Part shown: piece by piece, positions 1-59,045 of the stretch
Layout of the letters: every line of letters starts with the position of its first letter
Numbering within the stretch: the stretch's first letter is position 1
Assembly (NCBI GenBank): GCA_017508665.1
Contig: JAFVYL010000040.1
Location: 8,309 to 72,308 of the forward strand
DNA from: Clostridia bacterium
GTDB taxonomy: Bacteria > Bacillota > Clostridia > Oscillospirales > CAG-272
Direction: 5' to 3'
Length of the DNA: 64,000 nt
The notes under the pieces: generated by a model
Databases searched by the model: none
The model's input: only the letters and a program-made list of their open reading frames with translations
What the model was told of the DNA's origin: nothing
Translations under genes and position numbers: made by a program

Positions 1-26
1 GTCCAAAGAAAGGTAGGTTTTTTATT

Positions 27-254
27 ATGAAGGATAAGGAATATATTAATATCAACCCCGACGGTGATGATAGAATTTCTATAAGCAATATGCCGCCTCT
101 GGTGGGTATGAATGATACCGAAATGGTAGTTCCCGCATATAATCCGCCTGTTCCAAACAGAGCTTGGACAGCTATGAGAGCAGGCAAGGATATCGATGAA
201 TTGACGGAAGAAGAAAAGAGGATGCTTTACTTGGGTAAAGACGATATTATCTGA
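27..254 (+). CDS. hypothetical small protein (75 aa)
   Basis: Intact ORF with a purine-rich RBS (AAAGGTAGG) upstream of the ATG. No family recognised. Confidence 0.3.
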   Translation: MKDKEYININPDGDDRISISNMPPLVGMNDTEMVVPAYNPPVPNRAWTAMRAGKDIDELTEEEKRMLYLGKDDII

Positions 255-439
255 TAAAACGGTAAAAAATAAAGAAATAAGCCGAAAAAACACGCATAAA
301 AAAGTAACTGTAGTAAAAAGTACGAAATTATGCAGTCATAATCAAAAAATGTAAAAAAATAAAGATTATGATATAAAAAATCCGCAGAAAATATAACAAA
401 AACGGGATTTTTCCATTTTTAGCGTTCAAATAAAGAAAT

Positions 440-475
440 GCTACCGCAGAATCGCTTCTGCGGTAGCTGTTTTTG
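440..475. terminator. bidirectional intrinsic terminator
   Basis: GCTACCGCAGAA-tcgc-TTCTGCGGTAGC stem with a T-run on the + side and an A-rich run on the other side. It sits between convergent genes. Confidence 0.7.
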
Positions 476-521
476 TGTGGCTATGAAATGATGCGCGCCA
501 TACAAATCTGCATATTTCTTT

Positions 522-2720
522 TTATGTGCGCTTTCCCCAAACGGTGTACTCACCTGCGGTGTAGCTTTTTGTCACACCGTCGATCGTTACATCTGCGGTA
601 GTTCCTTCAGGAATAGCGAAAGAATATCTTACTCCGTCATTTGTGTATTTCCACTCGGAGCGAATGATTCCCGAGCGAGTCTCGATCCTTGCCTTTGCAA
701 AGCCGAGCTTTTCGCAAGGGATAGGAGATATCTCAAAGGTTTTGTATGCGGGAGTGGTAGGTCTGACACCGAGAATCGTGCGGTAGAACCAAGCCGCGCA
801 CGCGCCGTATGCGTAATGATTAAAGGAGTTCATGTCGGTGCTCCAGAAGCTGCCGTCCTCTCTTTGGCTGTCCCAGTGCTCCCAAATAGTAGTAGCACCC
901 ATATTTACAGAGAAGAGCCATGAGGGGAATTTCTCCTGGAGAAGAAGCGTGTAGGCCTTGTCGGGGCGGCCGATCTCGGTCAGAGCATCGAGAAGATAAG
1001 GAGTACCTACAAAGCCTGTCTGAAGTCTGTCACCGAATTCTTCTATGATCTCAACGAGTCTCTTTCCAAGCTTTGCCTTGAGCTCTGCATCATCATCGAC
1101 AAGACCAAAGTGCAGGGTAAGGACGTGAGCGGTCTGTGTATCCGAGGTGAGCTTTCCGCGCTTGATAAACTTGGATCTGTACGCCTTGCGGATCCTCTCG
1201 GCAAGTCTGTCGTAGCCCTCAGCGTTATATCCGAGAACACGGCAGGTCTTAGCGAGTATAGTTGTAATTAAGAAGTAATATGCGCTCGCGATCAGATCCT
1301 TGTCTGTAGATCCGGTGTAAGAGCCTGCGGGCGCATCCATGCCTAGCCAGTCACCGAAATGGTTGTCACCGAGCCAAAGGCACTTTTTGCCTGCGCGCGA
1401 CTTTACGTAGCCGTGCCACTTTTTCATCATAGGGAAGTGCTCGCGCAACAGCTTCCTGTCGCCGTAAGCATTGTATATCTCCCAAGGAACAATACATGCC
1501 GCATCGCACCAAGCGGTGGAGTTTCTGGTTGAGTTGATACGGAGAGCATCGGGGATAACGTGAGGCATTTCACCATTTTCGAACTGCTCACTCGCCATAT
1601 CGCGCAACCATTTTCTGAAAAATATCTCTGTATCAAAGTTTATGGATGCCGCTCTTGCAAATACCTGTGTGTCACCCGTCCATCCGAGTCTCTCATCTCT
1701 CTGCGGACAGTCGGTCGGAATATCGAGATAGTTGTCTCTCTGACCCCAGATGATGTTGGAGTAGAGCTGGTTGAGCTTTTCGTGTCCGCTGGTAAAGTAT
1801 CCTGTGCGCTTCATATCCGAGTGCATAACTATAGCTCGGAAGTTGTCCGCGACTACCTCCTCGGGCCAGTCGATCAGCTTTATGTATCTGAAGCCGAAGA
1901 AGGTGTACACAGCCTTATAGGTCTGCTTTCCCGGCTTAGCCGTATATACCATCTCGCTCCTTGCGGTACGGTAGTTGGCATTGTAGAAGTTGCCGTCTTT
2001 GTCAAGGACCTCAGCGCACTTTATCTCTACACGCTCGCCACCCTTTGCATTGAGAGTAAACTCTAAAGTGCCTGTTATCTCCTGTCCGAAGTCGATGAGC
2101 GTCTCGCCACTCGGGGTAGTAAATACGCGTCTTGGCGCTACTGTTTCGATCTCTCTTGTAGGAACACCGTCCATGGGTGTGAGCACGTTCTTATCGAAGT
2201 CGAAGATGTGAGCATTTGTCTTGAACTCGGGTGTGATGCGCGCATCCGTGATCTCACCGTCGTATATTCCTGAGAAGAGACACTCGGACTTAGCTGTCTG
2301 CCAGCTCTCGTCGGTCAGAACTGTCTCGCTTGTGCCGTCCTTGTAAAGGATCTCGAGGGCTGCTATGAGTGCAGGGTGCGTACCGTACATGCCACACTTA
2401 GTGTCGGGGAATCCGCCGCGTGATGAGTACCATCCGTTACCTACACCGATCGTAAGCTCGGAATTCTTATCGAGCATGTTTGACACGTCATAAGTGAAAA
2501 ATTGTAAACGTTTGTTGTAATTTGTCCAGCCCGGTGCCATGTAATCCTTGCCGACACGTGTACCGTTTATCTTCGCTACAAATACTCCGAGAGAGGAAAT
2601 ATGAAGTGTTGCTTTCTTCACTTCGTCCCTGAGTGAAATGCTTTTTTTGAAATATGGAGTTGCGGGAATCCATGACTTTTCCGCACAGATAAAATTCGCC
2701 TTGTAAATGGGATTTTTCAT
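522..2720 (-). CDS. alpha-L-rhamnosidase (glycoside hydrolase family 78)
   Basis: 732-aa ORF with the DCPQRDERLGWTGD motif. Length and layout are typical of GH78 rhamnosidases. Confidence 0.85.
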   Translation of the reverse strand: MKNPIYKANFICAEKSWIPATPYFKKSISLRDEVKKATLHISSLGVFVAKINGTRVGKDYMAPGWTNYNKRLQFFTYDVSNMLDKNSELTIGVGNGWYSSRGGFPDTKCGMYGTHPALIAALEILYKDGTSETVLTDESWQTAKSECLFSGIYDGEITDARITPEFKTNAHIFDFDKNVLTPMDGVPTREIETVAPRRVFTTPSGETLIDFGQEITGTLEFTLNAKGGERVEIKCAEVLDKDGNFYNANYRTARSEMVYTAKPGKQTYKAVYTFFGFRYIKLIDWPEEVVADNFRAIVMHSDMKRTGYFTSGHEKLNQLYSNIIWGQRDNYLDIPTDCPQRDERLGWTGDTQVFARAASINFDTEIFFRKWLRDMASEQFENGEMPHVIPDALRINSTRNSTAWCDAACIVPWEIYNAYGDRKLLREHFPMMKKWHGYVKSRAGKKCLWLGDNHFGDWLGMDAPAGSYTGSTDKDLIASAYYFLITTILAKTCRVLGYNAEGYDRLAERIRKAYRSKFIKRGKLTSDTQTAHVLTLHFGLVDDDAELKAKLGKRLVEIIEEFGDRLQTGFVGTPYLLDALTEIGRPDKAYTLLLQEKFPSWLFSVNMGATTIWEHWDSQREDGSFWSTDMNSFNHYAYGACAAWFYRTILGVRPTTPAYKTFEISPIPCEKLGFAKARIETRSGIIRSEWKYTNDGVRYSFAIPEGTTADVTIDGVTKSYTAGEYTVWGKRT

Positions 2721-2867
2721 TTCGGACCTCCGTTTTTTGATGACGTAATTTTTAGATATATTTTTGATTAAATGTTACCATATTAACCATGAAAAGTCAA
2801 TATACCCCTTGAAAAAAACGCTCGTACGTGTTAAAATATATAAAACAAACTTTTTGAGGTGATAAAA

Positions 2868-3683
2868 ATGACTCATCAGACCTTTAACTTTGAAGTCTCC
2901 GGCCATCAGATAGAGCTCCACGCATACGTCGCCGAGGGCTCAAAGGACAGAGATTCTGTGCTTATTTTTCCCGGCGGAGGATATCAAAATCTCTCAGTTG
3001 ACCGCGAGGGAGTGTCCGTCGCGCACGCATACCTTGAGCGTGGACTGAATGCCTTTGTGCTCCACTACGCTGTAGGCACGGAATACGTATATCCGAGCCA
3101 TCTTACCGACGCGTCGTTCGCTATCACTTATATCAAGTCACACGCGGAGGATTTCGGCATAGATCCCGAACGCATTTTCACCGTAGGATTCTCTGCGGGA
3201 GGACATCTTTCCGGCTCAATGGCAATTCTTCATAAGGATCCCGAGGTGCTCTCGGCTCTCGGCATAGAAAAGGGAGATAACAAGCCTTGCGGAGCTATAC
3301 TCGCATACCCCGTGGTATCCGCTATGGTAGCGACTCACGAGGGATCTTTTGCAAGACTTGCCGGAAAGCCCTTCGCCGATATTGATGCGAAAGAGCGTGA
3401 AGAGCTCTCACTTGAATGTAACGTTGATGAGGACTCTGCACCCGTCTTTATCTGGCATACATCCGAAGATCCTGCCGTTCCTATGCTCGGGTCGCTCAGA
3501 CTCACCGAGGCGTACTATTCCATCGGCAGGGCGGTAACTCTGCACGTTTACCCTTACGGTCCACACGGTATAGCTCTTGCTAACGAGCAGTCCTCTTGCG
3601 GCAACCCTAATTGGATACAGCCGCTTGCCGAGAATTGGGTGGATGAAAGCGTAAGATGGATCAAAACGGTAAAAAGCTATTGA
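2868..3683 (+). CDS. alpha/beta hydrolase (acetyl esterase/lipase-like)
   Basis: GFSAGGHL nucleophile-elbow (GxSxG) motif. The ATG at 2868 follows a GAGGTG RBS and is preferred over the GTG at 2859. Confidence 0.75.
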   Translation: MTHQTFNFEVSGHQIELHAYVAEGSKDRDSVLIFPGGGYQNLSVDREGVSVAHAYLERGLNAFVLHYAVGTEYVYPSHLTDASFAITYIKSHAEDFGIDPERIFTVGFSAGGHLSGSMAILHKDPEVLSALGIEKGDNKPCGAILAYPVVSAMVATHEGSFARLAGKPFADIDAKEREELSLECNVDEDSAPVFIWHTSEDPAVPMLGSLRLTEAYYSIGRAVTLHVYPYGPHGIALANEQSSCGNPNWIQPLAENWVDESVRWIKTVKSY

Positions 3684-3748
3684 CAACAGTATAAAATATA
3701 TTTATAATAATAACGGTAATTTTATCGCTAAAGCGAAAGGACAGAATA

Positions 3749-5035
3749 ATGGAAAGAACTTTAATCAAAAACGTTACCCCCGGCTACCACAAGGTACAGG
3801 GCTTCGTTGAAAACTTCCGTAACAAGAGAACTATGGCGTTTATCGTAGTAAGAGATGCTTCCGGTAAGCTCCAGGTTACTATCGAAAAAGAGAAGCATCC
3901 CGAGATGCAGGAGATGCTCGATAAGCTCACTATCCACTCCGTAGTTACCTTTGAGGGCGAGGTCGTTGCCTCCGAGTACGTAAAGATGGGTGGCAAGGAG
4001 ATGTATCCCGACACGATGAGAGTTGAGTCCTATGCCAACGCTCTTCCCATCAAGGATGACTCCGAGATCGACGTAAAGATGGACTACAGATGGATAGACC
4101 TCCGCCGTGAGAAAAACCACCTTATGCTCTCTCTTCAGACCACTCTTACCGCAGCATTCAGAGAGTTCCTTCTTGAGCGTGACTTCGTAGAGATCCATAC
4201 TCCCAAGCTTATAGCGGCTGCTTCCGAGTCGGGCTCTGACGTTTTCGAAGTCAAGTACTTTGACGGAAACGCATATCTTGCTCAGTCTCCTCAGTTCTAC
4301 AAGCAGATGGCTATGGCTGCAGGTCTTGAGAGAATATTTGAGACAGGCCCCGTTTTCAGAGCAGAGAAGTCCTATACTAATAAGCACGCTACCGAGTTCA
4401 CCGGCTTCGATCTTGAGTTCTCCTACGTTGACGGCTGTGAGGACGTTATGAAGATGGAAGAGGAGCTTCTCGCGTACGCTCTTGCAAAGGTTAAGGCGGC
4501 GCACGGAGATGCTATCAAGGAGCTTTACGGCATGGACCTTGAGGTTCCCACGCTTCCGTTCCCCAGAATGAAGCTTGCTGACGTTTACCGCGAGCTCGAG
4601 GAGAGATACGGCTACACAGTTCCCGCGGAGCTTCACGGTGACCTCACCACCGAGGCAGAGAGAATGACCAAGCAGCTTTGCCGCGATAAGTTTAACCACG
4701 AATTCCTCTTTATCACCGACTACGATGCGAGTGAGAGAGCATTCTATCATATGAGAGATGAAAACGGTGTTCCTCAGGGCTACGACCTTATCTGGCGCGG
4801 CGTTGAGATCACTACCGGTGCTCAGAGAGAGCACAGATACGACGTGCTTAAGGCTCAGGCTGAGGAGAAGGGACTTGCAGAGGACGTTAAGTTCTACCTC
4901 GAGTTCTTCCGGTACGGCTGTCCTCCTCACGGTGGCTTCGGCCTTGGTATTGACCGACTCACCATGCTCTTCCTCGGTCTTTCCATCAAGGAGGTTCAGT
5001 TCCTCTTCAGAGGTCCTAACCGTCTTACTCCGTAA
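3749..5035 (+). CDS. aspS: aspartate--tRNA ligase, archaeal/type-2 form
   Basis: Class IIb aaRS motifs: FRAEKS...TEF, YLEFFRYGCPPHGGFGLGIDRL, and a C-terminal FRGPNRLTP. The 428-aa length matches the short AspRS type. Confidence 0.8.
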   Translation: MERTLIKNVTPGYHKVQGFVENFRNKRTMAFIVVRDASGKLQVTIEKEKHPEMQEMLDKLTIHSVVTFEGEVVASEYVKMGGKEMYPDTMRVESYANALPIKDDSEIDVKMDYRWIDLRREKNHLMLSLQTTLTAAFREFLLERDFVEIHTPKLIAAASESGSDVFEVKYFDGNAYLAQSPQFYKQMAMAAGLERIFETGPVFRAEKSYTNKHATEFTGFDLEFSYVDGCEDVMKMEEELLAYALAKVKAAHGDAIKELYGMDLEVPTLPFPRMKLADVYRELEERYGYTVPAELHGDLTTEAERMTKQLCRDKFNHEFLFITDYDASERAFYHMRDENGVPQGYDLIWRGVEITTGAQREHRYDVLKAQAEEKGLAEDVKFYLEFFRYGCPPHGGFGLGIDRLTMLFLGLSIKEVQFLFRGPNRLTP

Positions 5036-10906: not shown

Positions 10907-11389
10907 ATGAAGTGTCCCGTTTGTAATAATTCAGATTCAAGAGTGCTTGACTCCCGTCCTATCGAAGACGGATCAAGTATAAAGCGCCGCCGCGAATGTC
11001 CCTCGTGCGGTAAGCGTTTTACGACATACGAGGTGATAGAGACGGTTGCGATAAACGTGGTAAAGCGTAACGGCAGCCGCGAGTTCTTCGATGCCAACAA
11101 GCTCGCTCACGGTATCGAGCGCGCGTGTCAGAAGAGACCGGTTGATCCGCTTGCTATAGCCAAGGATATCGAGACAGAGCTTCAGAACGAGCTTGTCGAG
11201 GAGATCACAGCGAGGGATATCGGTGAGATGGTTCTCGCAAGACTCAAAGAACGTGACATAGTATCATATATCCGCTTTGCTTCGGTATACCGTGAGTTCT
11301 CGGATATAGACTCCTTTATGGAGGAGATAAAAAGCCTTGGAAAAAAGGGAAGGAAAAGAGTAGCGAAGCCTGCTCAGACAGAAGAATGA
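10907..11389 (+). CDS. nrdR: transcriptional repressor NrdR
   Basis: MKCPVCNN...CPSCGKRFTTYE zinc ribbon plus an ATP-cone. The start is set at the conserved MKCP. Confidence 0.9.
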   Translation: MKCPVCNNSDSRVLDSRPIEDGSSIKRRRECPSCGKRFTTYEVIETVAINVVKRNGSREFFDANKLAHGIERACQKRPVDPLAIAKDIETELQNELVEEITARDIGEMVLARLKERDIVSYIRFASVYREFSDIDSFMEEIKSLGKKGRKRVAKPAQTEE

Positions 11390-12273
11390 TTAAGAGCATG
11401 ACAGCCTTCGGCAGAGCAAAGCTTGAGGGCGCGGAAAAGGATATAACCGTCGAGATAAAGAGCGTGAACTCGCGCTTCTTCGATTGCTCGGTAAAAATGC
11501 CGAGAGCCTACCTTTCTCTCGAAGAGAGAATTAAGAATTACATACAGAAAAATGCGGTCTCCAGAGCAAAGGTCGACGTGTTCATCACGGTAGACAATCA
11601 CTCCACAGCACCGCAGAAGCTCGATCTTGATGAGGCGTACGCTGAGAGCTACATAGCGGCGCTTTGCGAGCTGCGTGACAGATTTGCCTTGAAGGACGAT
11701 ATCAGTGTGATGAGCGTGGCGAGAAACCAGGACGTTTTCAGAAGTACGAGAGTCGATGCCGATCTTGAGGCAGAGTGGGCGCTCCTTCGCCCTGTGCTTG
11801 ACTCGGCTATTGCAGATCACACCGCTATGCGTACCGCGGAGGGCGAGAAGGCTATTGCCGATATCAACGGCAAGATTGAGCTGATACGCACCTTTGTCGA
11901 CGAGATCGAGGCTATCTCCAAGGAGGATACCGTCGGCTACAGAGATAAGCTCGAGGAAAGACTTCGCAAGATCCTCGCGGACAACTCCGTCGAGATCGAC
12001 GAGGGACGCATACTTACCGAGTGTGCCGTATGGGCAGACAAGATCGCCATAGACGAGGAGCTCGTCAGACTTCGCAGTCACTTCGGCGCGTTTTACGATA
12101 TCGCTGAGGCAAAAGAGCCCTCGGGCAGAAAGCTTGACTTCCTTATGCAGGAGATGAACAGAGAGACAAATACCATAGGCTCAAAGGCGAACAACGCGAG
12201 GATAGCCCGCATAGTTGTAAATATCAAGGGCGAGCTCGAGAAGATCCGCGAGCAGGTTCAGAATATTGAGTAA
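11386..12273 (+). CDS. yicC: YicC-family stress-induced protein
   Basis: MIKSMTAFGRA N-terminus and a C-terminal EMNRETNTIGSKA motif. It overlaps the nrdR stop codon. Confidence 0.85.
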   Translation: MIKSMTAFGRAKLEGAEKDITVEIKSVNSRFFDCSVKMPRAYLSLEERIKNYIQKNAVSRAKVDVFITVDNHSTAPQKLDLDEAYAESYIAALCELRDRFALKDDISVMSVARNQDVFRSTRVDADLEAEWALLRPVLDSAIADHTAMRTAEGEKAIADINGKIELIRTFVDEIEAISKEDTVGYRDKLEERLRKILADNSVEIDEGRILTECAVWADKIAIDEELVRLRSHFGAFYDIAEAKEPSGRKLDFLMQEMNRETNTIGSKANNARIARIVVNIKGELEKIREQVQNIE

Positions 12274-18649: not shown

Positions 18650-19710
18650 CCGAAAAACACGATCTTTATTCAATGACTGACACCGAGCTTGAGGAGTATT
18701 TCATCTCACTCGGCGAGCCAAAGTTCAGGGCAAAGCAGGTCTTTCCGCGTCTTGCGGAGGGCACTCCGTTGTCCGAGATGACAAACCTTCCTAAAAAGCT
18801 CAGGGAAAGACTCGAGTCCGAGACTCTTGACACTCTCCCTCGCGTTGAGGCAAAGTTCACTTCAAAAATAGACGGCACGGTAAAATATCTTTTCCGCCTC
18901 CACGACGGTGAGTGTGTCGAGAGCGTTTTTATGCGCTATAAGCACGGAAACACGCTTTGCATATCGAGTCAGGTAGGTTGCCGTATGGGTTGCCGCTTCT
19001 GTGCCTCTACTATCGGCGGTAAGGTGCGCGACCTTCTCCCGTCCGAGCTTCTCGGACAGGTTATTGCGGCATCGCGTGACACAGGTGAGAGAGTCTCTAA
19101 CATCGTAATGATGGGTATAGGTGAGCCTCTTGATAACTTTGACAACGTGGTTAAATTCTTGAAGCTTGTAAACCTCCCCGGCGGTCTTAATATAGGCTAC
19201 AGACATATATCTCTGTCGACCTGCGGAGTCGTTACCGGTATAGATAAATTAGCCGAGGTTGACATTCCAATAACGCTTTCGATATCGCTCCACGCGGCGA
19301 CCGACGAGAAGCGCTCGGCAATAATGCCCGTCAACAACAAATGGAAGATAAAGGATCTTCTCGAGGGATGCGTCCGCTACTACAACCGCACCGGCAGAAG
19401 AATATCCTTTGAATACACCTTGATCAGCGGAAAAAATGACACGCCTGCCGATGCAGAGGAGCTTGCGGCTCTTTTGAACTCCTACTTTAAGCCGATCAAC
19501 GCCCCGATACACGTCAATCTTATCCGTGTAAACGAGGTCAAGGAAACGGGCTTTAAGCAGGGAAGCACGACAGAGGCAAACGCCTTTGCGGCTCTGCTTG
19601 AGAAGAGAGGTATAACCGCAACGGTAAGACGCCGTTTAGGATCGGATGTTAACGCCGCCTGCGGACAATTAAGACGCGCCTCGGTAAATTCAGGTGAGAC
19701 CAAGGTATAA
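18646..19710 (+). CDS. rlmN: 23S rRNA/tRNA (adenine-C2)-methyltransferase RlmN (radical SAM)
   Basis: CISSQVGCRMGCRFCAST radical-SAM cluster and C-terminal AACGQL motif. Confidence 0.9.
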   Translation: MTEKHDLYSMTDTELEEYFISLGEPKFRAKQVFPRLAEGTPLSEMTNLPKKLRERLESETLDTLPRVEAKFTSKIDGTVKYLFRLHDGECVESVFMRYKHGNTLCISSQVGCRMGCRFCASTIGGKVRDLLPSELLGQVIAASRDTGERVSNIVMMGIGEPLDNFDNVVKFLKLVNLPGGLNIGYRHISLSTCGVVTGIDKLAEVDIPITLSISLHAATDEKRSAIMPVNNKWKIKDLLEGCVRYYNRTGRRISFEYTLISGKNDTPADAEELAALLNSYFKPINAPIHVNLIRVNEVKETGFKQGSTTEANAFAALLEKRGITATVRRRLGSDVNAACGQLRRASVNSGETKV

Positions 19711-19822
19711 AGCAATTTCACTTCTCCCACCGAATCTACTCTCGCCGATGCCTCGGTAAATTCAGGTGAGACCAAGGTATGAAGCAATTTCACTTCTCCC
19801 ACCGAATCTACTCTTGCCGATG
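19679..19822 (+). repeat. 72-bp tandem duplication (2 copies, 2 mismatches) spanning the rlmN stop codon
   Basis: 19679-19750 and 19751-19822 are identical except A->G (TAA->TGA) and C->T. Copy 1 holds the last 29 coding nt of rlmN, its stop codon and 40 nt downstream. Confidence 0.95.
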
Positions 19823-19883
19823 CTTTTCGGTTTTCGAGAAAATACAATCCAATTGATTTTACAACACGAAAGAGAGAACTCTA

Positions 19884-25772: not shown

Positions 25773-26301
25773 AGGCTTCGCCAAAACGCTGGTAGTGGAC
25801 TATCTCGCGCTGGCGCAGGAATTTGATTACGTCGTTTACGTCGGGATCGTCTGAAAGGCGAAGAATGTTGTCGTAGGTCACTCTCGCTTTCTGCTCTGCG
25901 GCAAGGTCCTCGTTGAGATCCGAGAGGGGATCGCCCTTAGACGAGATAGCCATAGCAGAGAAGGGCTCGCCCGATGCGGCACAGGGGTAAACACCCGACC
26001 CGTGTCCAATATAATACTTATCTAGGCCTCCGGCCTTTATCTGCTCGGGGGTGAGATTGCGTGTGAGCTGATAGATAATACTGCCCACCATCTCCGCGTG
26101 ACCTAGCTCCTCGTTTCCTATATCGGTCAGTGTTCCTATAATCTTGCCCGACGGCATTGTGAAACGCTGATTCAGATATCTTGTAGCCGCGCCCAGCTCA
26201 CCGTCAGGGCCGCCGAGGGCATCTATAATAAGGCTCGCAAGTCGAGCATTGGGGTTCTTGATCCTTACAGGATACTGCAGCTTTTTCTCATATATCCACA
26301 T
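25753..26301 (-). CDS. cotJC: spore coat protein CotJC (manganese-catalase family)
   Basis: MWIYEKKLQYPV N-terminus, the LNQRFTMP...ELGHAEMV di-metal motif, and REIVHYQRFGEAL near the C-terminus. Confidence 0.9.
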   Translation of the reverse strand: MWIYEKKLQYPVRIKNPNARLASLIIDALGGPDGELGAATRYLNQRFTMPSGKIIGTLTDIGNEELGHAEMVGSIIYQLTRNLTPEQIKAGGLDKYYIGHGSGVYPCAASGEPFSAMAISSKGDPLSDLNEDLAAEQKARVTYDNILRLSDDPDVNDVIKFLRQREIVHYQRFGEALRSLTE

Positions 26302-27104: not shown

Positions 27105-28124
27105 TTAAAAATCCAAATATTCTTCAAAGAAATCTTCAGATGAAAACTCAAATGGAATATAAACAAACTTATAAGTTAAGTTGAAGATGTACTTGTCACC
27201 GTCGGAATCTGTGTAAACTTTCTTAATAAGATTACCCTTTTCGTCGTAGGTGTAGTCGGTGATGCGCTTATCACCGTAGGAAGATGTGTAAACTTCCTTA
27301 ATAAGATTACCCTTTTCGTCGTAGGTGTAGTCGTAGATGGACTTATCACCGTCGGAATATGTCTCAACTTTCTTAATAAGATTACCCTTTTCGTCGTAGG
27401 TGTAGTCGGTGATGTGCTTATTTCCGTTTGAATCTGTGTAAACTTCCTTAATAAGATTACCCTTTTCGTCGTAGGTGTAGTCGGTGATGTTCTTATAACC
27501 GCCAGGATGTGTGCAAACTTCCTTAATAAGATTACCCTTTTCGTCGTAGGTGTAGTCGTAGATGGACTTATAGCCGTCAGAATATGTCTTAACTTCCTTA
27601 ATAAGATTACCTTTTTCGTCGTAGGTGTAGTCGTAGATGGACTTATCGCCGTTAGAATGTATGTAAACTTCCTTAATAAGATTACCTTTTTCGTCGTAGG
27701 TGTAGTCTATGATGTACTTATTGCCGCTGGAATATGTCCCAACTTCCTTAATAAGATTACCCTTTTCGTCATAGGTGAAATCAATTGTACATTTTCCACC
27801 GTATTCGGCGTTTAGTGATACTATTTGTGAGGGAAGGTTTTGTTTGTTTAAGGAGATAGTCGCAGTTAGAACAGCTTGTTTTTCGCCATCAACTTGAAGC
27901 TTTACATATGTGGGAAGATAATAGAATTTCCCAACTCCATCATCAACGTCATCATTATTGTCGGGTAATTCATCAACATTATTATCGTTTGGTAATTCAT
28001 TAATAATGTCATCATTCTCGCTGGGCAATTCACTTTGTACCCCTATGTATTTTAGAAGCTCACAAGATGACAGACATACGATTAATATTGAAACAAGCAA
28101 CAGGATTGAAAAAAGCTTTTTCAT
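27105..28124 (-). CDS. lipoprotein with eight tandem YD-type repeats
   Basis: Lipobox LSSC. Eight 25-aa units of the form DYTYDEKGNLIKEVYT.S.G.K.I, which fit the YD/Rhs-repeat consensus YxYDxxGNL. AT-rich. Confidence 0.7.
   Translation of the reverse strand: MKKLFSILLLVSILIVCLSSCELLKYIGVQSELPSENDDIINELPNDNNVDELPDNNDDVDDGVGKFYYLPTYVKLQVDGEKQAVLTATISLNKQNLPSQIVSLNAEYGGKCTIDFTYDEKGNLIKEVGTYSSGNKYIIDYTYDEKGNLIKEVYIHSNGDKSIYDYTYDEKGNLIKEVKTYSDGYKSIYDYTYDEKGNLIKEVCTHPGGYKNITDYTYDEKGNLIKEVYTDSNGNKHITDYTYDEKGNLIKKVETYSDGDKSIYDYTYDEKGNLIKEVYTSSYGDKRITDYTYDEKGNLIKKVYTDSDGDKYIFNLTYKFVYIPFEFSSEDFFEEYLDF
27186..27786 (-). repeat. eight 75-bp near-identical tandem repeats (coding)
   Basis: TTAATAAGATTACCC recurs exactly every 75 nt at 27223, 27298, 27373, 27448, 27523, 27598, 27673 and 27748. 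Confidence 0.95.
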
Positions 28125-43556: not shown

Positions 43557-43776
43557 ATTTATCTTGGAAAATATCATATCCCAAGCCGACGGATTTCGCT
43601 AAAGCGAATATACCTGCACTCGCCTTAAGAAAGCGAGCTTTCTACGGCTTCGTTTGGTATGTGCACCCGTATCCGCGCACACGGCTGTGTGCTAACAATG
43701 CGGTCTTGATAACTTTAGCTATGATAGAAAGCAGAGTGCAAAGCGCGGGCGGGTTCAACCGCGGCTCACAAAATAA

Positions 43777-43802
43777 TATAGGCACCCGAGTGGGTGCCTA
43801 TA
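43777..43802 (-). terminator. ssrA terminator
   Basis: TATAGGCACCC-gagt-GGGTGCCTATA stem immediately 3' of the tmRNA CCA end, with a T-rich tract on the minus strand. Confidence 0.7.
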
Positions 43803-43809
43803 TTATTTT

Positions 43810-44175
43810 TGGTGGAGCCGACGGGAATTGAACCCGTGTCCAAAGACCAATCCATACAACTTTCTCCGTAGACAGTCAATCTATTAAGCTTCCCACATCG
43901 GAGCGCCGAGTGACAGGCTCACCTCAGGGTAGCGCATTAATGCGTGACCGATACATGCGCGACTCTCGGTTCACGTGCACTACTCATTTGACGCACGGCT
44001 TGGGCCGTAGTCCTCCCAAGCGGTACGGGCGGCATTATTGCCGCATCAGCAGCTTACGCTGCCATAGCAACTTTATTGTTGTCGTTTATTATTTAAGTTT
44101 GGACATTTTGACGCGATTATCCGGCGCGCTACGCTTATCATACTTCACGACCCCTGTCGAAACCATTGCGGCCCC
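43810..44175 (-). ncRNA. ssrA: transfer-messenger RNA (tmRNA)
   Basis: On the minus strand it reads GGGGCCGCAATGGTTTCGACAGGGG...GGGTTCAATTCCCGTCGGCTCCACCA. The internal tag reading frame ends ...AAC AAT AAA GTT GCT ATG GCA GCG TAA (..NNKVAMAA-stop). Confidence 0.93.
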
Positions 44176-52100: not shown

Positions 52101-54233
52101 GATGAGTACAACCGTTATGCTGACCTTCTTAAGTATCTCAATGTTTCCTACTTCTATGACGGTATTGCTAACAATCTCGGTGTAAACCTTGTAAAAACAT
52201 ACAGAGTTACCGCAAGCGTTGAGCTTGTTAACCATCCTAACTTCAATGACGCATCTCTTGATCAGCTCGGTCCTGTAAACTTTGTTATCACAGGTGACAA
52301 GGTAAGCGAGTTCCAGCTTGCAGGCGGTACCGTTATTGTAGAGGCAGTCGGCGGCCTTACTCCCGACCACACTCTTAACGTTAAGAAGGCTACTCACGTT
52401 AAGCCTACTTATGAGATCGATAAGAAGAACGCAGTAGTTATTATCTCTTATGACATCTTCTTCACCAAGGGTCTTCAGAAGATTCCCGCAAACGTTGATG
52501 GCAGAGAGTTCATCGTTAAGATCCTTATTCCCGAAAGCCAGCGCGAAATAGGTCGCAGAGATCAGTTCCAGGTTATCCACGTAAACGAGGATGGCACTTT
52601 CGAGATCATGAACGCTACTCGCGAAGGCAATTACATGGTATTCACTACCGACCACTTCTCCGAGTACGCTATAGTACGCGTTGAGGCTAAGAGCCTTGCT
52701 TGGCTCTGGATACTCCTCTTCGCTATACTTGCAGGCGGTATCGCAGTAGGCGTATACTTCTTCACTAAGAACCGTAAGGAAACTGCAGAGGCACTTGCAG
52801 CTGAGGCAACTGAGGAAACTCCCGCAGAGGAAACTCCCGCAGAGGAAACTCCCGCAGAGGAAACTCCCGCAGAAGAAACACCTGCTGAGGAAGCACCTGC
52901 TGAAGAAGCTCCTGTAGAGGAAGCACCTGCAGAGGAAACACCTGTTGAGGAAGCACCCGTAGAGGAAGCTCCTGTAGCAGAAGAGCCTCAGACCGCAGTT
53001 CTTGTTATGGGTCAGGACGGCAAGGAAGCTACCGCGGTTATCGGCGGTGAGACCGTTCACATCAGATTCAGAAGCTCCTTCCTCTCCAGACTTATCCAGT
53101 CCAGCGAGAATATTCAGGACTTCTACTCCACAATTAAGAACTATATTCTTTCCTTCAAGGGCATCAAGGCGAGAAGCAGCTGGAACTATGAGGCCTTCAA
53201 TAAGGGCAGAGTACAGCTTGTTAAGCTTAACATCAAGGGTAAGACTCTCGTTGTTAACCTCAACCTCGATCCTAAGGAATTCAACGTTAATAAGTATCAC
53301 TTCGTAGATTGCTCCGACAAGCCTAAGTTCGCTAAGGTTCCTATGATGATGAAGGTAAGAAGTGCAAGAGCACTTAAGTACACTCTTGAACTCATCGATG
53401 AGATGATGAAGAAGTATGAGCTTAAGCAGCTTGAGATTCCTACCGTTGATTACCGTATGCCTTACGAGACCACCGAGGAGCTTGCTAAGCGCGGTATCGT
53501 TAAGGTCATTCTTCCCGCAGGCGTAACCCTCAGTGATGATATGACATTCGTACACGTTAACGTAAGCGAGCTTATCGAGTCCGGCACGACTGTAAAGACT
53601 ACTGAACAGGTTGTAACCGGAGAGACTCCCGTAGTTGATGAAACTCCCGTAGTTGAAGAAACTCCCGTAGTTGAAGAGACTCCCGTAGTTGAAGAGACTC
53701 CCGTAGTTGAAGAGACTCCTGTAGTTGAAGAGACTCCCGTAGTTGAAGAGACTCCTGTAGTTGAAGAAGCTCCCGTAGTTGAAGAGACTCCTGTAGTTGA
53801 AGAAGCTCCCGTAGTTGAAGAGACTCCCGTAGTTGAAGAGACTCCCGTAGTTGAAGAAGCTCCCGTAGTCGCAGCTCCTGTAGTTGAGGTACTCGAGGAC
53901 GGTACAGTTCATGCAGATGCAGACTCAGCTGACCAGCTCGTTTCCGACGAGGAAGCAGAAGCTCAGCTTGAGGTTTCTGCAGAGGGCGTGAGCCGCAGCG
54001 GTAAGATGGGCGAGGTTAACCTCGACGTCATCTGTGAAAACTTCGATGACGGTGACGTTGTCGATGTAGACTCCCTTAAGGCAAAGCGCCTTGTGTCCGC
54101 TAAGATCGGCAGAGTAAAGATCCTTGCTCGCGGTGTTATGACCAAGAAGCTTACCGTAAAGGCAAGCAAGTTCTCCCTTCAGGCTGTAAAGATGATCACT
54201 CTTGCAGGCGGTAAGGCAGAGCTTGAGGAGTAA
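49161..54233 (+). CDS. giant single-pass membrane protein (1690 aa): about 1175-aa ectodomain, TM helix, acidic-repeat cytoplasmic region and a C-terminal uL15-like domain
   Basis: Signal peptide. TM helix [23 protein letters not shown] near aa 1180. ETPAE and ETPVVE repeats. The last about 74 aa align by eye with the ribosomal protein L15 C-terminus. Confidence 0.7.
52812..52976 (+). repeat. eleven 15-bp in-frame tandem repeats (E-T/A-P-A/V-E)
   Basis: GAGGAAACTCCCGCA units follow directly after the TM helix. Confidence 0.9.
53622..53888 (+). repeat. about fifteen 18-bp in-frame tandem repeats (E-T/A-P-V-V-E)
   Basis: GAGACTCCCGTAGTTGAA units with synonymous and T/A variation. Confidence 0.9.
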
Positions 54234-55235: not shown

Positions 55236-55817
55236 TTGAAGTTTTTAAATATAAGTGATATAAAGTTAAAGGTAACACTTAGCCCGGAAGATTGTCGGGA
55301 TTACGGCATAGACACCGCTAAGGGTGAGATTTCCACACGCGAGGTCAGACGTGCGGTGCGCGTGATAATAGAGAGAGCGCGTGAGGAGTGCGGCTTTTCA
55401 GTAGGCTCTGACAGGATATTGGTGCAGACGTATCCTTTGCCGAGCGGAGAGTGTGAGCTCCTCATCACAAGACTTAGCGCTGTGCCGCACAGAGAACGCG
55501 CTGTCCTGACGTCCTCTGACGGTATGTCGACGATGGAGCATAGGAGAGGGGTATACCGCTTCTCATCTATTGACGATCTGCGCTCGGCAGTCAGAGCCGC
55601 ATACCGTGAAGATGCGGAGTGCGACCTTTACCTCGATGACCTTGGCAGATATTATCTGCATGTCAGCGAGCACGTCACCGACGGACTCTCCGAGTTTGAG
55701 ATATTCATAGAGTATGGCGAGCGCCTTGCCGCTCTTCCTATAGCCGTCCTCTCGGAATACGGTACTCACCTCGCAGGCCCCCACGCCTTTGAATATGTTA
55801 TGCATGATGAAATATAA
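55236..55817 (+). CDS. MecA-like adaptor protein
   Basis: The N-terminus MKFLNISDIKLKVTLSPEDCRDYGID resembles the MecA N-domain. TTG start, 193 aa. Confidence 0.45.
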   Translation: MKFLNISDIKLKVTLSPEDCRDYGIDTAKGEISTREVRRAVRVIIERAREECGFSVGSDRILVQTYPLPSGECELLITRLSAVPHRERAVLTSSDGMSTMEHRRGVYRFSSIDDLRSAVRAAYREDAECDLYLDDLGRYYLHVSEHVTDGLSEFEIFIEYGERLAALPIAVLSEYGTHLAGPHAFEYVMHDEI

Positions 55818-55941
55818 AAAAACAGAGCGGAAAATGGGTGATGTTCTTAGCGGAGAAATTGAAAACTCTACTAAGTGCGAGCATCGCATTTGTCCGGACA
55901 AATGCAAAATGGGCTAAGCCCAAGCCCTTATACAAACAGAA

Positions 55942-55990
55942 AGAGCAAGAATAGAAGGATTTTCTCCTCTTATTCTTGCTCTTATTTTTT
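55942..55990 (+). terminator. intrinsic terminator
   Basis: AGAGCAAGAATA-17 nt-TATTCTTGCTCT stem followed by TATTTTTT. Confidence 0.75.
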
Positions 55991-55993
55991 CTG

Positions 55994-56272
55994 TCGATAT
56001 ATTCACTTTCGTGAAATATCTTCACGAAAGATGAATTCGATATGTTCTTGCTTTGCTCGAACTCGATATATTGTCGCTTCGCTCCAATTCGATATGAGAT
56101 AAATCCCTTTCGCTTTTGACATATCTCGCCTTTGGTGAGGAATGCAAAAGCATATCGAGTGCGTCAGCACATATCGAGGTTGTATATCTCGCCTGTGGCG
56201 AGGTATGCAAACCATATCGAAAATCCCGTGAGGGATTTATCTCGATGCGTGTTCTCCGTTAAGGATAACACG
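55994..56272. repeat. second mini-hairpin array (TCGATAT / ATATCGA linkers)
   Basis: TCGATAT at 55994, 56037, 56063 and 56089. Its reverse complement ATATCGA at 56152, 56171 and 56214. Small hairpins lie between the linkers. A 38-nt unit is repeated (56121-56159 and 56184-56220). Confidence 0.8.
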
Positions 56273-56309
56273 CTAAATCCGCTCTGTCTTTTATGTACTT
56301 TCCTCGGAA

Positions 56310-59045
56310 TTATTCGGGAAGAATGGGATAGATATAATTCTCAAGGTAGTAAAGACGGTCTGCCTTAACACCAACAACGGCCGCATACTGAGCTCTCATA
56401 TCAGTAAGGCTGAAGTTAGCATTCTTGATCATAGTATGCCACTTATCCTGCTCGGAGTTACCGCCGGTCTGAGCCTTGTAGAACTCACCGAGTGCGTCCT
56501 CGAACGTCTTATCGAAATTAGAACGGACGTTGTAACGGATGTACTGAAGCATCTCTACGTTACCTACTGTGTCAAGCACCTGAGGGGTAGCCTTGAGCTT
56601 GTAATCGTAGTACTCGATAAGTACCTTGTTAGAATTGGTGGACTGATAGTTGAGGTAAGCTGTGCACTGTGCAAACTTCCGAGTAGAGAATGCGATAGCA
56701 CCGATCTTACCGTTGTTATGGATCTGAGTGAGGTAATCGTCGCCGCCCTCGGAGTGATAAAGCGGAACGGGAGCGATACCGTAACCCTTCTTACCTGCGC
56801 CCTTCATGCCGAGGTAATCCTCATGCTCAAGAGCACCAAGCAGGGTAACGCCGCCGAAGAGGATCTTACCGTTCGCAAAGTTATGGCGGATAGCCTCGGT
56901 GTCGTTAGCAAAGCCTGCGGCACGAGCCTCGTTAGTGCTTACGGTGATAACACCGTTAGTGTTAACAAGTTCGGAAAGGTTCTTACAGAATACGTCGAGC
57001 TGCTCGAAGGTAGCATATTCGCCATTATCGTTGAACTCGAACTGACCGGGAGCTACTTCCTTGGTGTTGGGGTAGTTGTAGGTGTACTCAATGGTATCGA
57101 AAGTTCTGTTAACGATAGTGATAGAGGTGCTGTAAAGCATACCGGATGCGGGAAGACCTGAACCGGTACCGAGTGCAAAGCCAACTCTGTCTGCGATAGT
57201 GATGTTAGCGTCGCCGCCCTGCTCTTGAACAATAGCCTCGGAGAAGGCAGCGAGAGTCTCGTAGGTCCAATTCATGTTCCATACGAGATCATAGAAATCG
57301 ATGATGTCGTACTTGCCGTTCTCGTTAGAGTCGTAGTTGAACTCACCCTCAACGTTGGAGGGAGTGATCATCTCAAGAAGCTCAATGTTAACGGGAACTA
57401 CCATCGATGCCCGTATTGCGTCGATAAAGTAGTCGGAAGAAAGGCAATACATCTTCCACTTGGAAAGGGTGAGAGATCTCATGTACTCGTACATGTAGTC
57501 TACACCGGTATCCTCGTAGGTTCTGTCATCCTCGAATGCGAAGTAGTTGTACTCAGTGCCTGCATACTGATGGCCATCCTCATACATAGTGGTGGAGTAG
57601 AGGTTAGCAAAGTTACCTCTGAGAGAGGAAGCTACCATATCGTATACGAAGCTGATGAATACGTCGGGAGTCTCAGGGTCACCGCTCTTTACAAGCTCAT
57701 CGATGAAATAGATGCTCTGGCTCCAACCATAGCTTGCACCGTCGGGAAGGTACAGATACTTAGCCTTAACGTTGGTAACATTTTCCGCGTCAGCGTTTCT
57801 GTCTGCTACGTAGTCATCTACGTGAGCCTGATCATCCTCATAACCGGAAAGGTCACCTGCGAGATATCTTCTGGAAGTAGAAGGAAGCTGAGAAGAGTTA
57901 GAGTCCTCGTTTATGCAGATGGTAATGTCTGTCTTGCTCCAAGGATATGGACTGTCTGACGATATCCACATAGCATAGAAAGTGTGTGAAGAGAAGAAGT
58001 CGATCGAATTTAAAGCGGATGAATAATCGGTATACCAACCGGCAAAAATATAGCCTTCCTTAGTGGGGTCGCTGAGCTGTATCGGATATCTATCTCCGCT
58101 ATATATTACAGTCGGATTATTGTACGAGTTTGTACCACCGTCAAGCTCATATCTGACGGGCGCACTCCATCTTCCTACAAGGGAGATGTCATCGGTTATA
58201 GGCGTGTTGAAGTCCCATTTTGTGTTACCGTTATACCATCCCTCAAACGTCCATCCTGATACTGAAGGGGGTATCGGCTCGGATATTGTAGTTCCGGTGA
58301 CCACCGACGTTCTGAATACAAAGTCTGCGGTCTGGCATACAACTTCATGCACCTTTACCCAGCTTGCGGTCAAGTCGAGACTTGAGGTTACAGGGGCGTT
58401 GAAGTCCCATTTTGTGCCGTTGTTATACCAACCGTCAAAAGCGTAGCCGCTTTTACTCGGCTCTTCGGGTTCTGTTATTTTATCTCCGTACTGTGCGTTC
58501 TGGGAGCTTAGCAAGACTCCGTTTTCATTGACGAACCTTATCGTATAGGTCAGTGAATTCCATCTGGCGGTAAGCGTGATATCTTCGGTGACCGAGTATC
58601 CGATAAAGGACCAAGCCTCATCACCTACATACCAACCGATGAAGATTGAGCCATCCTTGTTAGGATCTGCAGGCTTTTGAATTTTACCTCCGTGCTCAAC
58701 CGCTTGGGTGGAGATTAGTGTACCGTCTTCGTCAACGAAATTGACGTTGTATGTCAATACGTTCCATTTTGCCTTAAGAGTTATACTCTCGGTTACGGTA
58801 GAGCTGAAGTCCCACTTTGAGTCTTCGAGATACCAGCCGGCGAATACATAGCCGTCTTTAGTGGGATCCTCAGGCTCGACAATAGGTTCATCTTTTGATA
58901 CGCGTTGCTCTGCAATTTTACTGCCGCCATCTGTATCAAAGGTAATTGTGAACGTGTCATCGGTGAAACGACCAAAATAGTCGCATGAAACAAATGTAAA
59001 GCAAAGCAGTACCAATGCTAAAGCAATAAGCAAATACTTTTTCAT
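56310..59045 (-). CDS. lipoprotein with five InlB-B/Listeria-Bacteroides repeats and a large uncharacterised C-terminal domain (911 aa)
   Basis: Lipobox FVSC. Five about 65-aa units with a ...P.K.GY.F.GWY......WDF... pattern. The C-terminal about 550 aa is unassigned and may be solute-binding-like. Confidence 0.6.
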   Translation of the reverse strand: MKKYLLIALALVLLCFTFVSCDYFGRFTDDTFTITFDTDGGSKIAEQRVSKDEPIVEPEDPTKDGYVFAGWYLEDSKWDFSSTVTESITLKAKWNVLTYNVNFVDEDGTLISTQAVEHGGKIQKPADPNKDGSIFIGWYVGDEAWSFIGYSVTEDITLTARWNSLTYTIRFVNENGVLLSSQNAQYGDKITEPEEPSKSGYAFDGWYNNGTKWDFNAPVTSSLDLTASWVKVHEVVCQTADFVFRTSVVTGTTISEPIPPSVSGWTFEGWYNGNTKWDFNTPITDDISLVGRWSAPVRYELDGGTNSYNNPTVIYSGDRYPIQLSDPTKEGYIFAGWYTDYSSALNSIDFFSSHTFYAMWISSDSPYPWSKTDITICINEDSNSSQLPSTSRRYLAGDLSGYEDDQAHVDDYVADRNADAENVTNVKAKYLYLPDGASYGWSQSIYFIDELVKSGDPETPDVFISFVYDMVASSLRGNFANLYSTTMYEDGHQYAGTEYNYFAFEDDRTYEDTGVDYMYEYMRSLTLSKWKMYCLSSDYFIDAIRASMVVPVNIELLEMITPSNVEGEFNYDSNENGKYDIIDFYDLVWNMNWTYETLAAFSEAIVQEQGGDANITIADRVGFALGTGSGLPASGMLYSTSITIVNRTFDTIEYTYNYPNTKEVAPGQFEFNDNGEYATFEQLDVFCKNLSELVNTNGVITVSTNEARAAGFANDTEAIRHNFANGKILFGGVTLLGALEHEDYLGMKGAGKKGYGIAPVPLYHSEGGDDYLTQIHNNGKIGAIAFSTRKFAQCTAYLNYQSTNSNKVLIEYYDYKLKATPQVLDTVGNVEMLQYIRYNVRSNFDKTFEDALGEFYKAQTGGNSEQDKWHTMIKNANFSLTDMRAQYAAVVGVKADRLYYLENYIYPILPE

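Follow-up and report, generated by a model that had tools for sequence, protein, structure and literature searches.

What is the array of small hairpins and repeated heptamers that fills the gap between two convergent genes of a Clostridia bacterium (Oscillospirales, CAG-272)? The window that we analysed covers 64,000 nt of this genome (assembly GCA_017508665.1, contig JAFVYL010000040.1), and the gap (55818-56309, 492 nt) is flanked by a MecA gene (Pfam) on one side and by a gene for a 911-aa protein with Flg_new repeats on the other. A sequence-only reading of the window had compared this array (55.8-56.3 kb, hereafter locus 2) with arrays at 24-26 kb (locus 1) and had suggested a dispersed repeat family. 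We find that positions 55835-56273 are probably one copy of a discrete mosaic element of ~440 bp (439 bp), non-coding, mobile and non-autonomous, of the type of miniature inverted-repeat transposable elements (MITEs) or bacterial interspersed mosaic elements (BIMEs). The other contigs that we compared, many of them metagenomic, are given below as L-numbers.

Inspection of the sequence recovered, at the same coordinates, all the literal features that the sequence-only reading had placed in the gap. There is a perfect 20-nt palindrome, a strong terminator made of a hairpin and a T-run (together 55936-55998; -25.8 kcal/mol on the plus strand, -29.2 on the minus strand), and an exact 10-nt inverted repeat bracketing the whole. 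The linker TCGATAT occurs four times on the plus strand (55994, 56037, 56063, 56089), after which the polarity flips and it is read on the minus strand (56152, 56171, 56214). The small hairpins are all present, with two corrections: the loop of CTCGCC/GGTGAG is ttt instead of tttg, and TGC-aaaa-GCA is only the tip of a longer hairpin (56109-56151). Seven of the 19 copies of TCGATAT in the window are packed in 230 nt, and shuffled sequences hold ~14 copies per whole window. The locus also folds much better than its shuffles, with minimum free energy (MFE) z-scores of -9.4 and -8.6 for the plus- and minus-strand RNA and -9.7 for DNA. No part of the window has linker arrays of this kind except this locus and 24.1-25.8 kb; generic scans for hairpin clusters and for MFE density were too noisy to be used.

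That the array is an insertion is indicated by relatives that lack it. In two syntenic relatives, whose MecA proteins are 72% and 65% identical to the one in the window, only 130 nt (L016) and 103 nt (L017) separate the two genes. L016 has an uninterrupted plain hairpin, AGAGCGGAGA..TCTCCGCTC, at the position of the split stem. The minus strand of the window reads ACAGAGCGGAT-TTA, then the element (GCGTG...CACCCA, 55835-56273), then TTT-TCCGCTCTGT. Excising the element in silico gives ATAAAAAAACAGAGCGGATAAATCCGCTCTGTCTTTTATG, a canonical terminator with A-tract, stem and T-tract (-20.9 kcal/mol, z-score -9.5). By these comparisons, the element sits in the former 3-4-nt loop of a bidirectional terminator common to the mecA-like and 911-aa genes, the arms of which are now ~445 nt apart. 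The 10-nt bracket is therefore the split stem of the old terminator and lies outside the element, as both the L016 hairpin and the reconstructed empty site indicate. The bracketing repeat extends to 41 nt at 76% complementarity. A MecA query against contigs of GTDB representative genomes, a set that does not include the genome of the window, returned no locus, and a MecA alignment query only three distant loci.

A second insertion site shows the same arrangement. Metagenomic contigs with an identical MecA have an identical array, and several of them end inside it (contig ends of L002 and L005). One contig, L003, departs from the window at 56274-56278 and has another neighbour there, a PHP-family gene with folD behind it (L003 2560-2620). 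We traced this PHP gene to the strains that include L264 and L265; since the coding DNA is 98.6% identical, they belong to the same species as the L003 flank. In L264 and L265 a paralogue of the whole element lies 3' of the PHP gene, with the same ends, linkers, terminator and palindrome, and it agrees with the window copy at every one of its first 66 nt. L003 is more likely an assembly join through this 66-nt identical end than a true recombinant; either way, it reveals a second copy in the sampled population. The contigs L268-L275 (PHP 88% identical) have at this locus a gap of 39-63 nt that consists of a textbook bidirectional terminator, aaaaaACGGTTGAGCattttGCTCAACCGTttttttt. The empty allele of L269 reads ACGGTTGAACAT-TTA-CGCTCAACCGT. 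The filled allele of L264, whose flanks are identical, reads ACGGTTGAACAT-TTA-[GCGTGTTATCC...ATCACCCA]-TTA-CGCTCAACCGT, a perfect TTA/TTA duplication. Both resolved sites (2/2, the mecA locus and the PHP locus, the latter another terminator between convergent genes) are thus insertions into a terminator loop. The placement between convergent genes, which the sequence-only reading had treated as a possible preference of the arrays, holds for these sites and arises from the insertion into terminator loops; other members of the family are placed immediately upstream of small genes or in the gaps between cistrons of phages.

We located both ends of the element by fuzzy search and defined its polarity on the minus strand (Table 1). 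In that direction it begins with the terminal hairpin E. Segments X and X' (ATCGAGATAAATCCC-loop-GGGATTT) come next, and after them three hairpin units, each with a TCGATAT, then X'' (GGGATTTATCTC) and the units of ATATCGA plus hairpin. It continues with the bidirectional terminator, a small GC hairpin, the perfect palindrome and the far inverted-repeat end. The two ends form an imperfect terminal inverted repeat, 55835-55857 matching the reverse complement of the hairpin-E end (56247-56273) at 17 of 22 positions. The AAA beyond the far end is possibly a decayed 3-nt target duplication. Open reading frames (ORFs) within the element are not conserved between copies. The palindrome of L264 is ATTTGACTAGTCAAAT, in which three symmetric central pairs are altered (the central 8 nt differ) while it remains perfect to the centre. 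Within the plus-strand arm, hairpins 56044-56062 and 56070-56088 differ at six positions, among them two compensatory pairs. The minus-strand arm contains linker variants (ATATCTCG at 56121 and 56184, ATCTCGA at 56239). Hairpin E is identical in L264-L267 and near-identical in L254; in L132 its stem is changed with the pairing kept. Compared with the L264 paralogue, window hairpins 56109-56151 and 56178-56213 have an extra nested mini-hairpin (ATWCCTCRCC-nnn-GGCGAGATAT), which points to duplication or insertion of hairpin units inside loops.

Table 1. Features of the element at locus 2, its flanks and the neighbouring genes (window coordinates).
Feature	Position	Strand	Remarks
MecA gene (Pfam)	55236-55817	+	upstream neighbour of the gap
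Left arm ACAGAGCGGA of the pre-existing bidirectional terminator stem	55822-55831		flank, outside the element; exact inverted repeat with 56278-56287; hairpin in L016
Flanking AAA	55832-55834		counterpart of TAA at 56274-56276
Whole element	55835-56273	- (polarity defined there)	end-to-end homology with the L264/L265 copies, partial with L132
Far-end terminal inverted repeat TGGGTGATGTTCTTAGCGGAGAA	55835-55857		conserved in L264, L265
Perfect palindrome GCATTTGTCCGGACAAATGC, 20 nt	55886-55905		inside the element
The element's own intrinsic terminator, bidirectional (AAGAGCAAGAATA..TATTCTTGCTCTT and a T-run)	55936-55992		also in L132, L264, L265, L254, L020
Array arm, four TCGATAT linkers	55994-56095	+	hairpins 56001-56036, 56044-56062, 56070-56088
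GAGATAAATCCCT	56096-56108		13-bp perfect pairing with 56231-56243, enclosing the other arm
Array arm, TCGATAT linkers on the minus strand	56109-56246	-	ATATCGA at 56152, 56171, 56214; hairpins 56109-56151, 56159-56170, 56178-56213, 56221-56238
Terminal hairpin E, GCGTGTTCTCC-gttaa-GGATAACACGC	56247-56273		element end nearest to the 911-aa gene
Flanking TAA (TTA on the minus strand)	56274-56276		L003 breakpoint within 56274-56278
Right arm TCCGCTCTGT of the pre-existing terminator stem	56278-56287		flank, outside the element
911-aa Flg_new-repeat gene	56310-59045	-	convergent neighbour of the gap

The suggestion of a dispersed repeat family was borne out: the same species has further copies (L264/L265, L003), and others are found in phage contigs and in different organisms. 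We scanned metagenomes of the Joint Genome Institute (JGI) for the pattern of the core layout. Most of the metagenome and viral matches were tandem repeats or chance matches and were filtered out. The same core layout was found in L087, L091, L078 (twice), L062, L047, L068, L023, L045, L132 and L137. L132 is a clear homologue from another organism, set between unrelated genes, with the same terminator, linkers, X segments and hairpin E, and L047 contains three paralogues within 11.6 kb that are 83-88% identical. Alignment of seven of the elements showed no variation in the linkers; 97.4% of the cells are paired, and 23 of the 29 pairs show compensatory change; none of 500 shuffles did as well, and slid controls reached 25-50%. 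A 12-bp pairing of X with X'', which encloses one arm, is 95% paired in these seven elements, with four compensatory pairs. It competes with the local X:X' hairpin, and both pairings covary. A covariance model of one TCGATAT arm (R1) matches 56090-56250 on the minus strand (86.7 bits) and 55989-56112 on the plus strand (23.2 bits, E-value 0.005), so that the flip of polarity is explained as an inverted duplication. Linkers and frame are conserved from copy to copy, and it is the hairpin stems that are replaced, with their pairing kept.

Arrays of a related type are found in phages. Two-armed ATGAATTG/CAATTCAT arrays occupy intercistronic gaps of phage-flagged contigs and end just before the next ribosome-binding site (RBS). 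L251, which encodes terS, terL and a portal protein, has three (230-385, 2870-3030 and 4510-4770), and others are found in L257, L260, L252, L254 and L262. The copies within phage contigs are paralogous and show compensatory stem changes. Searches in reference collections returned little: Rfam 15 had nothing for locus 2 beyond terminator-like noise, either at the gathering threshold or at E-value ≤10, and BLAST of the element and of one phage array gave no match among GenBank phages and PLSDB plasmids. Our literature searches turned up no account of such arrays beyond Gut-1 (see below) and a generic paper on hairpin-cluster terminators. The array family of uncultured gut Clostridia and their phages is largely undescribed. 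We also observed TCGATAT-type arrays directly upstream of genes for 23S_rRNA_IVP (four-helix-bundle) proteins (L087 268-699; L091 681-1046).

How does this family relate to the arrays at 24-26 kb? The design that the sequence-only reading saw in both (constant short linkers, variable hairpins, a flip of polarity) is indeed shared; statistical similarity is not. A blastn search with locus 2 gave no significant match in the rest of the window, including 24-26 kb, and R1 found nothing in the locus 1 arrays at E-value ≤1. The proposed kinship of the CTCTGT motif, the GTTAAGGA core and the GCGT..ACGC closure with a hairpin of the locus 1 cassettes is most likely a coincidence, because that hairpin is the 3' coding end of cotJC (..RSLTE, with T-E-stop). 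The CTCTGT of locus 2 belongs to the flanking pre-existing terminator stem. At locus 1 (24140-25790, minus strand) two small genes come after cotJC, each of which has a TGnTATAAT promoter of its own. A cassette unit there is bounded by a copy of the 3' coding end of cotJC (NCFGEAMRSLTE and DCIAEALRSLTE, each followed by a stop), hairpin modules and a conserved terminator; the CotJC proteins of relatives end in QRFGEAMRSLTE, again followed by the stop. An exact-match look-up of the 173-aa cassette protein returned no match. The contig L022 from a distant relative (Clostridia bacterium RGIG3901) has four cassettes after cotJC (1-4800), with the same linkers and with stems that are partly the same.

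Locus 1 resembles the Rfam motif Gut-1 (RF01706), which consists of three variable hairpins between (G)UGAAAU linkers and was described in human gut metagenomes, with a function that is not known (PMC2864571). The better of its two matches (24149-24220, minus strand) scores 45.3 bits (E-value 4e-7), against a gathering threshold of 50, and the other (25676-25745, minus strand) scores 33.8 bits. Locus 2 has no match to the Gut-1 covariance model at E-value ≤10. Three contigs bridge the two types. In L254, ATGAATTG/CAATTCAT arms are enclosed by hairpin E and the terminator of locus 2. That terminator also occurs in L020, together with an E-like hairpin and a match to Gut-1 above the threshold (50.8 bits, 326-401, minus strand). 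In L264 (~11030-11560) a TCGATAT array downstream of rpsI is followed by the terminator/promoter header of the cotJC cassettes. The linker variants GUGAAAU, GCGAUAU, UCGAUAU, AUGAAUUG and GUGAAGU all fit NYGAWDU, and the Gut-1 model weakly matches the GCGATAT arms of L047 (41.9 bits). As these three contigs combine both linker types on one chassis, the two loci of the window can be regarded, on these comparisons, as members of one modular superfamily, not as copies of one repeat. The only member of this superfamily described so far is Gut-1, which appears to be one arm of such array elements. The stacks of cassettes (two genes in the window, four in L022, and the one at rpsI in L264) have no recombinase nearby, an arrangement that is integron-like or like that of cis-mobilisable elements (CIMEs).

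If the element is mobile, it would be moved in trans by an enzyme encoded elsewhere. The terminal inverted repeat and the TTA duplication suggest a DDE transposase; a route through single-stranded DNA (ssDNA), with an HUH enzyme, would also be allowed. A need to fold as single strands, be it for mobility, in the transcript or both, may be why the hairpin arms are kept. Here, transcripts of mecA would end at the element's terminator (~55990). Transcripts of the 911-aa gene would run through hairpin E and both arms and reach the same terminator from the other side, which would give this gene a hairpin-rich 3' untranslated region (UTR) of ~320-370 nt.

Several observations weigh against a mobile element. 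A scan of 20 ORFs of the window revealed no transposase or recombinase, and an autonomous partner with the same ends did not turn up either, the collections not having been scanned for these ends. The target duplication is perfect only in L264 (the window has TTA/TTT), and the ATTTA that is common 5' of hairpin E also agrees with an insertion that is target-specific and makes no duplication. No more than two insertion sites are resolved in full. Moreover, the core is co-directional with the neighbouring gene in all five non-convergent contexts (L087, L091, L078 twice, and L264 at rpsI), often ending just before an RBS, and the X segment has two mutually exclusive pairings, X:X' and X:X'', which look switch-like; that both covary also fits a primary role as RNA. 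These two observations also favour a structured RNA of the Gut-1 kind, such as a 3'-UTR or intercistronic element or a small RNA, for which dispersal would be secondary. Its single-stranded UCGAUAU linkers would bind a protein or be cleaved, or its hairpins would block exonucleases. Covariation across the seven elements is strong, Gut-1 was rated as certainly an RNA by Weinberg et al. 2010 (PMC2864571), and the arrays lie between stop codon and terminator on the minus strand at every locus of the window. The arm at 56096-56277 has five G:U pairs on the plus strand vs one on the minus strand, but this excess is on the strand antisense to the sole gene able to transcribe through the arm. Stem pairs are nearly all Watson-Crick, with G:U in 4 of 193 cells (2%) of the seven-element alignment, and pooled near-pairs show no strand asymmetry (10 G:T vs 8 A:C of 610). 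The arms are inverted copies, so one transcript holds two different linker sequences, and the palindrome is loopless and, in two diverged copies, perfect to the centre. The polymorphism of presence and absence, with ends that are defined, and the lack of an Rfam match at locus 2, also speak against a primary RNA role, which we consider unlikely. It seems likely instead that the entity is mobile DNA, and that its arms may act as ssDNA, as RNA or both.

Two other explanations were considered. The arrays could be folded single-strand recombination sites, functionally similar to the attC sites of integrons, of a cassette system that piles up small genes with promoters of their own 3' of housekeeping genes, with locus 2 as an empty cassette remnant that has no gene. 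The array-bounded stacks at the 3' end of cotJC (two genes in the window, four in L022) and 3' of rpsI (L264) look like such a system: they repeat the cotJC 3' end and a common terminator/promoter header, one cassette contains a TCGATAT array (L264), and the small genes of L078 are flanked by two arrays. Yet no locus seen has an adjacent integrase, locus 2 has no cotJC mimic, cassette header or gene, its ends are MITE-like and inserted in a terminator loop instead of an att site, and its GTTAAGG departs from the attC core GTTRRRY; we regard this explanation as improbable. The array could also have grown in place, as a locally duplicated cluster of terminators and hairpins that was never mobile and serves termination in general. 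Adjoining units are indeed diverged duplicates, and hairpin clusters 3' of stop codons have been proposed to act as terminators (PMC8355165). Homologues with the same ends at unrelated loci and in other organisms, together with empty sites in relatives, make this very hard to sustain. A wider conjecture, which we consider unlikely, is that all these arrays (Gut-1, CAATTCATG, TCGATAT and related types) serve an unrecognised cassette system that has no integrase, as its modules for mobility or recombination. Such a system would stack single accessory genes, each equipped with a promoter, 3' of conserved genes (cotJC, rpsI) and would also place copies that lack a gene, locus 2 among them, in terminator loops. 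Gut-1 would then be mobile DNA read as single strands and not a small-RNA gene, and the hosts would be uncultured gut Clostridia and their phages.

If the element is probably a MITE- or BIME-like mobile sequence, as we propose, it provides a genomic context for Gut-1, an orphan Rfam motif the function of which has not been known since 2010. It also indicates that the hairpin arrays of uncultured Clostridia from gut and rumen, and of the phages of these bacteria, form a whole class that behaves like dispersed and modular DNA. Metagenome assemblies break at such elements, and chimeric joins can arise there (L002, L005, L003); they replace native terminators, lengthen 3' UTRs and accompany stacks of small accessory genes. 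Invariant linkers with freely covarying stems are unusual among bacterial repeats and offer a system in which to ask whether selection or templated repair maintains the pairing.

The window contains other repeats and folded regions. At 23562-24138 the 3' end of rplL and its terminator are duplicated, with a 59-nt direct repeat (23622-23680 and 24080-24138, 98% identical). The stretch between the repeats holds part of a second rplL coding end, with an insert of ~144 nt, and a 164-bp element with 24-nt inverted ends (23915-23938 and 24055-24078). The gene for the transfer-messenger RNA (43810-44175, minus strand) encodes the tag DNNKVAMAA, and a hairpin-rich, strongly folding stretch lies just past its 3' end (43560-43809). 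Tandem repeats are found at 19678-19823 (72 nt, two copies, 97% identical) and in an RHS-repeat gene (75/225-nt units, 27185-27777), and a gene for a 1690-aa protein has coding repeats of 15 and 18 nt (52812-52974 and 53621-53869).

How does the element compare with known systems? Its nearest counterparts, taken up below, are the MITEs of bacteria, the REP/BIME/REPIN elements and the pneumococcal BOX. It has in common with integron attC sites that palindromic sites at cassette boundaries are defined by structure and variable in sequence. An attC site proper was ruled out: GTTAAGG fails at the last core position (RYYYAAC/GTTRRRY), the window ORFs scanned include no integrase, and locus 2 has no cassette gene and does not lie at the boundary of a cassette. 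We also discarded the repeats of type III toxin-antitoxin systems and of CRISPR arrays, since the units differ, the linkers are only 7 nt long, there is no adjacent toxin or cas gene, and the CRISPR-DR match is at noise level. Anti-CRISPR repeat mimics were considered and rejected, as were hairpin P-nucleotide footprints of hAT-like excision, the stems being unrelated to the flanks.

The pneumococcal BOX elements are modular intergenic repeats of the form boxA-boxB(n)-boxC. They resemble our element in being modular and intergenic, with a variable number of tandem sub-units, strong folding and a mobilising enzyme that is not known. They have no sequence relation to it, and what is repeated in them is a conserved sub-unit instead of a variable hairpin set between fixed linkers.

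The repetitive extragenic palindromes (REP), together with BIMEs, the inverted REP doublets (REPINs) and the REP-associated tyrosine transposases (RAYTs) (PMC2817692, PMC3116915, PMC3479197), offer short hairpins with a conserved motif at the foot, a 3' intergenic location, and alternating or inverted clusters with linkers in which the inverted doublet is the mobile unit; here R1 matches both strands. In REP the palindrome itself is conserved, with a GTAG head, whereas here the stems vary and only the linker TCGATAT and its variants are fixed. No RAYT was found in the 64-kb window, the host is a Firmicute and not a proteobacterium, and the element has terminal inverted repeats and an apparent target duplication. 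REP in the strict sense is ruled out, as stems differ between units and between copies and lack the GTAG head.

Gut-1 has the identical design of variable hairpins and conserved linkers, derives likewise from uncultured gut Clostridia, and arms of its type stand on the chassis (terminator, hairpin E) of TCGATAT-type arms in L020 and L254. The linker of locus 2 is a different one (UCGAUAU), and Gut-1 has been described as a free-standing non-coding RNA and not as an arm of a two-armed mobile DNA.

With the MITEs and other small mobile sequences of bacteria (Correia/NEMIS, RUP, ERIC/RU-1; PMC2229807, PMC3184786) the differences concern the interior, the target and the modules. The interior consists of two inverted arrays of an invariant heptamer plus variable hairpin instead of a simple long hairpin. 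The element sits in terminator loops at the two resolved sites and has no known partner insertion sequence, and its modules can be exchanged between elements and occur also in the intercistronic gaps of phages. Like these sequences, the element is shorter than 600 bp, non-coding and intergenic, has terminal inverted repeats that are imperfect, possibly with a short target duplication of A/T letters, and is present in several copies with empty and filled alleles at orthologous sites; such sequences, too, can carry terminators and form long stem-loops in transcripts.

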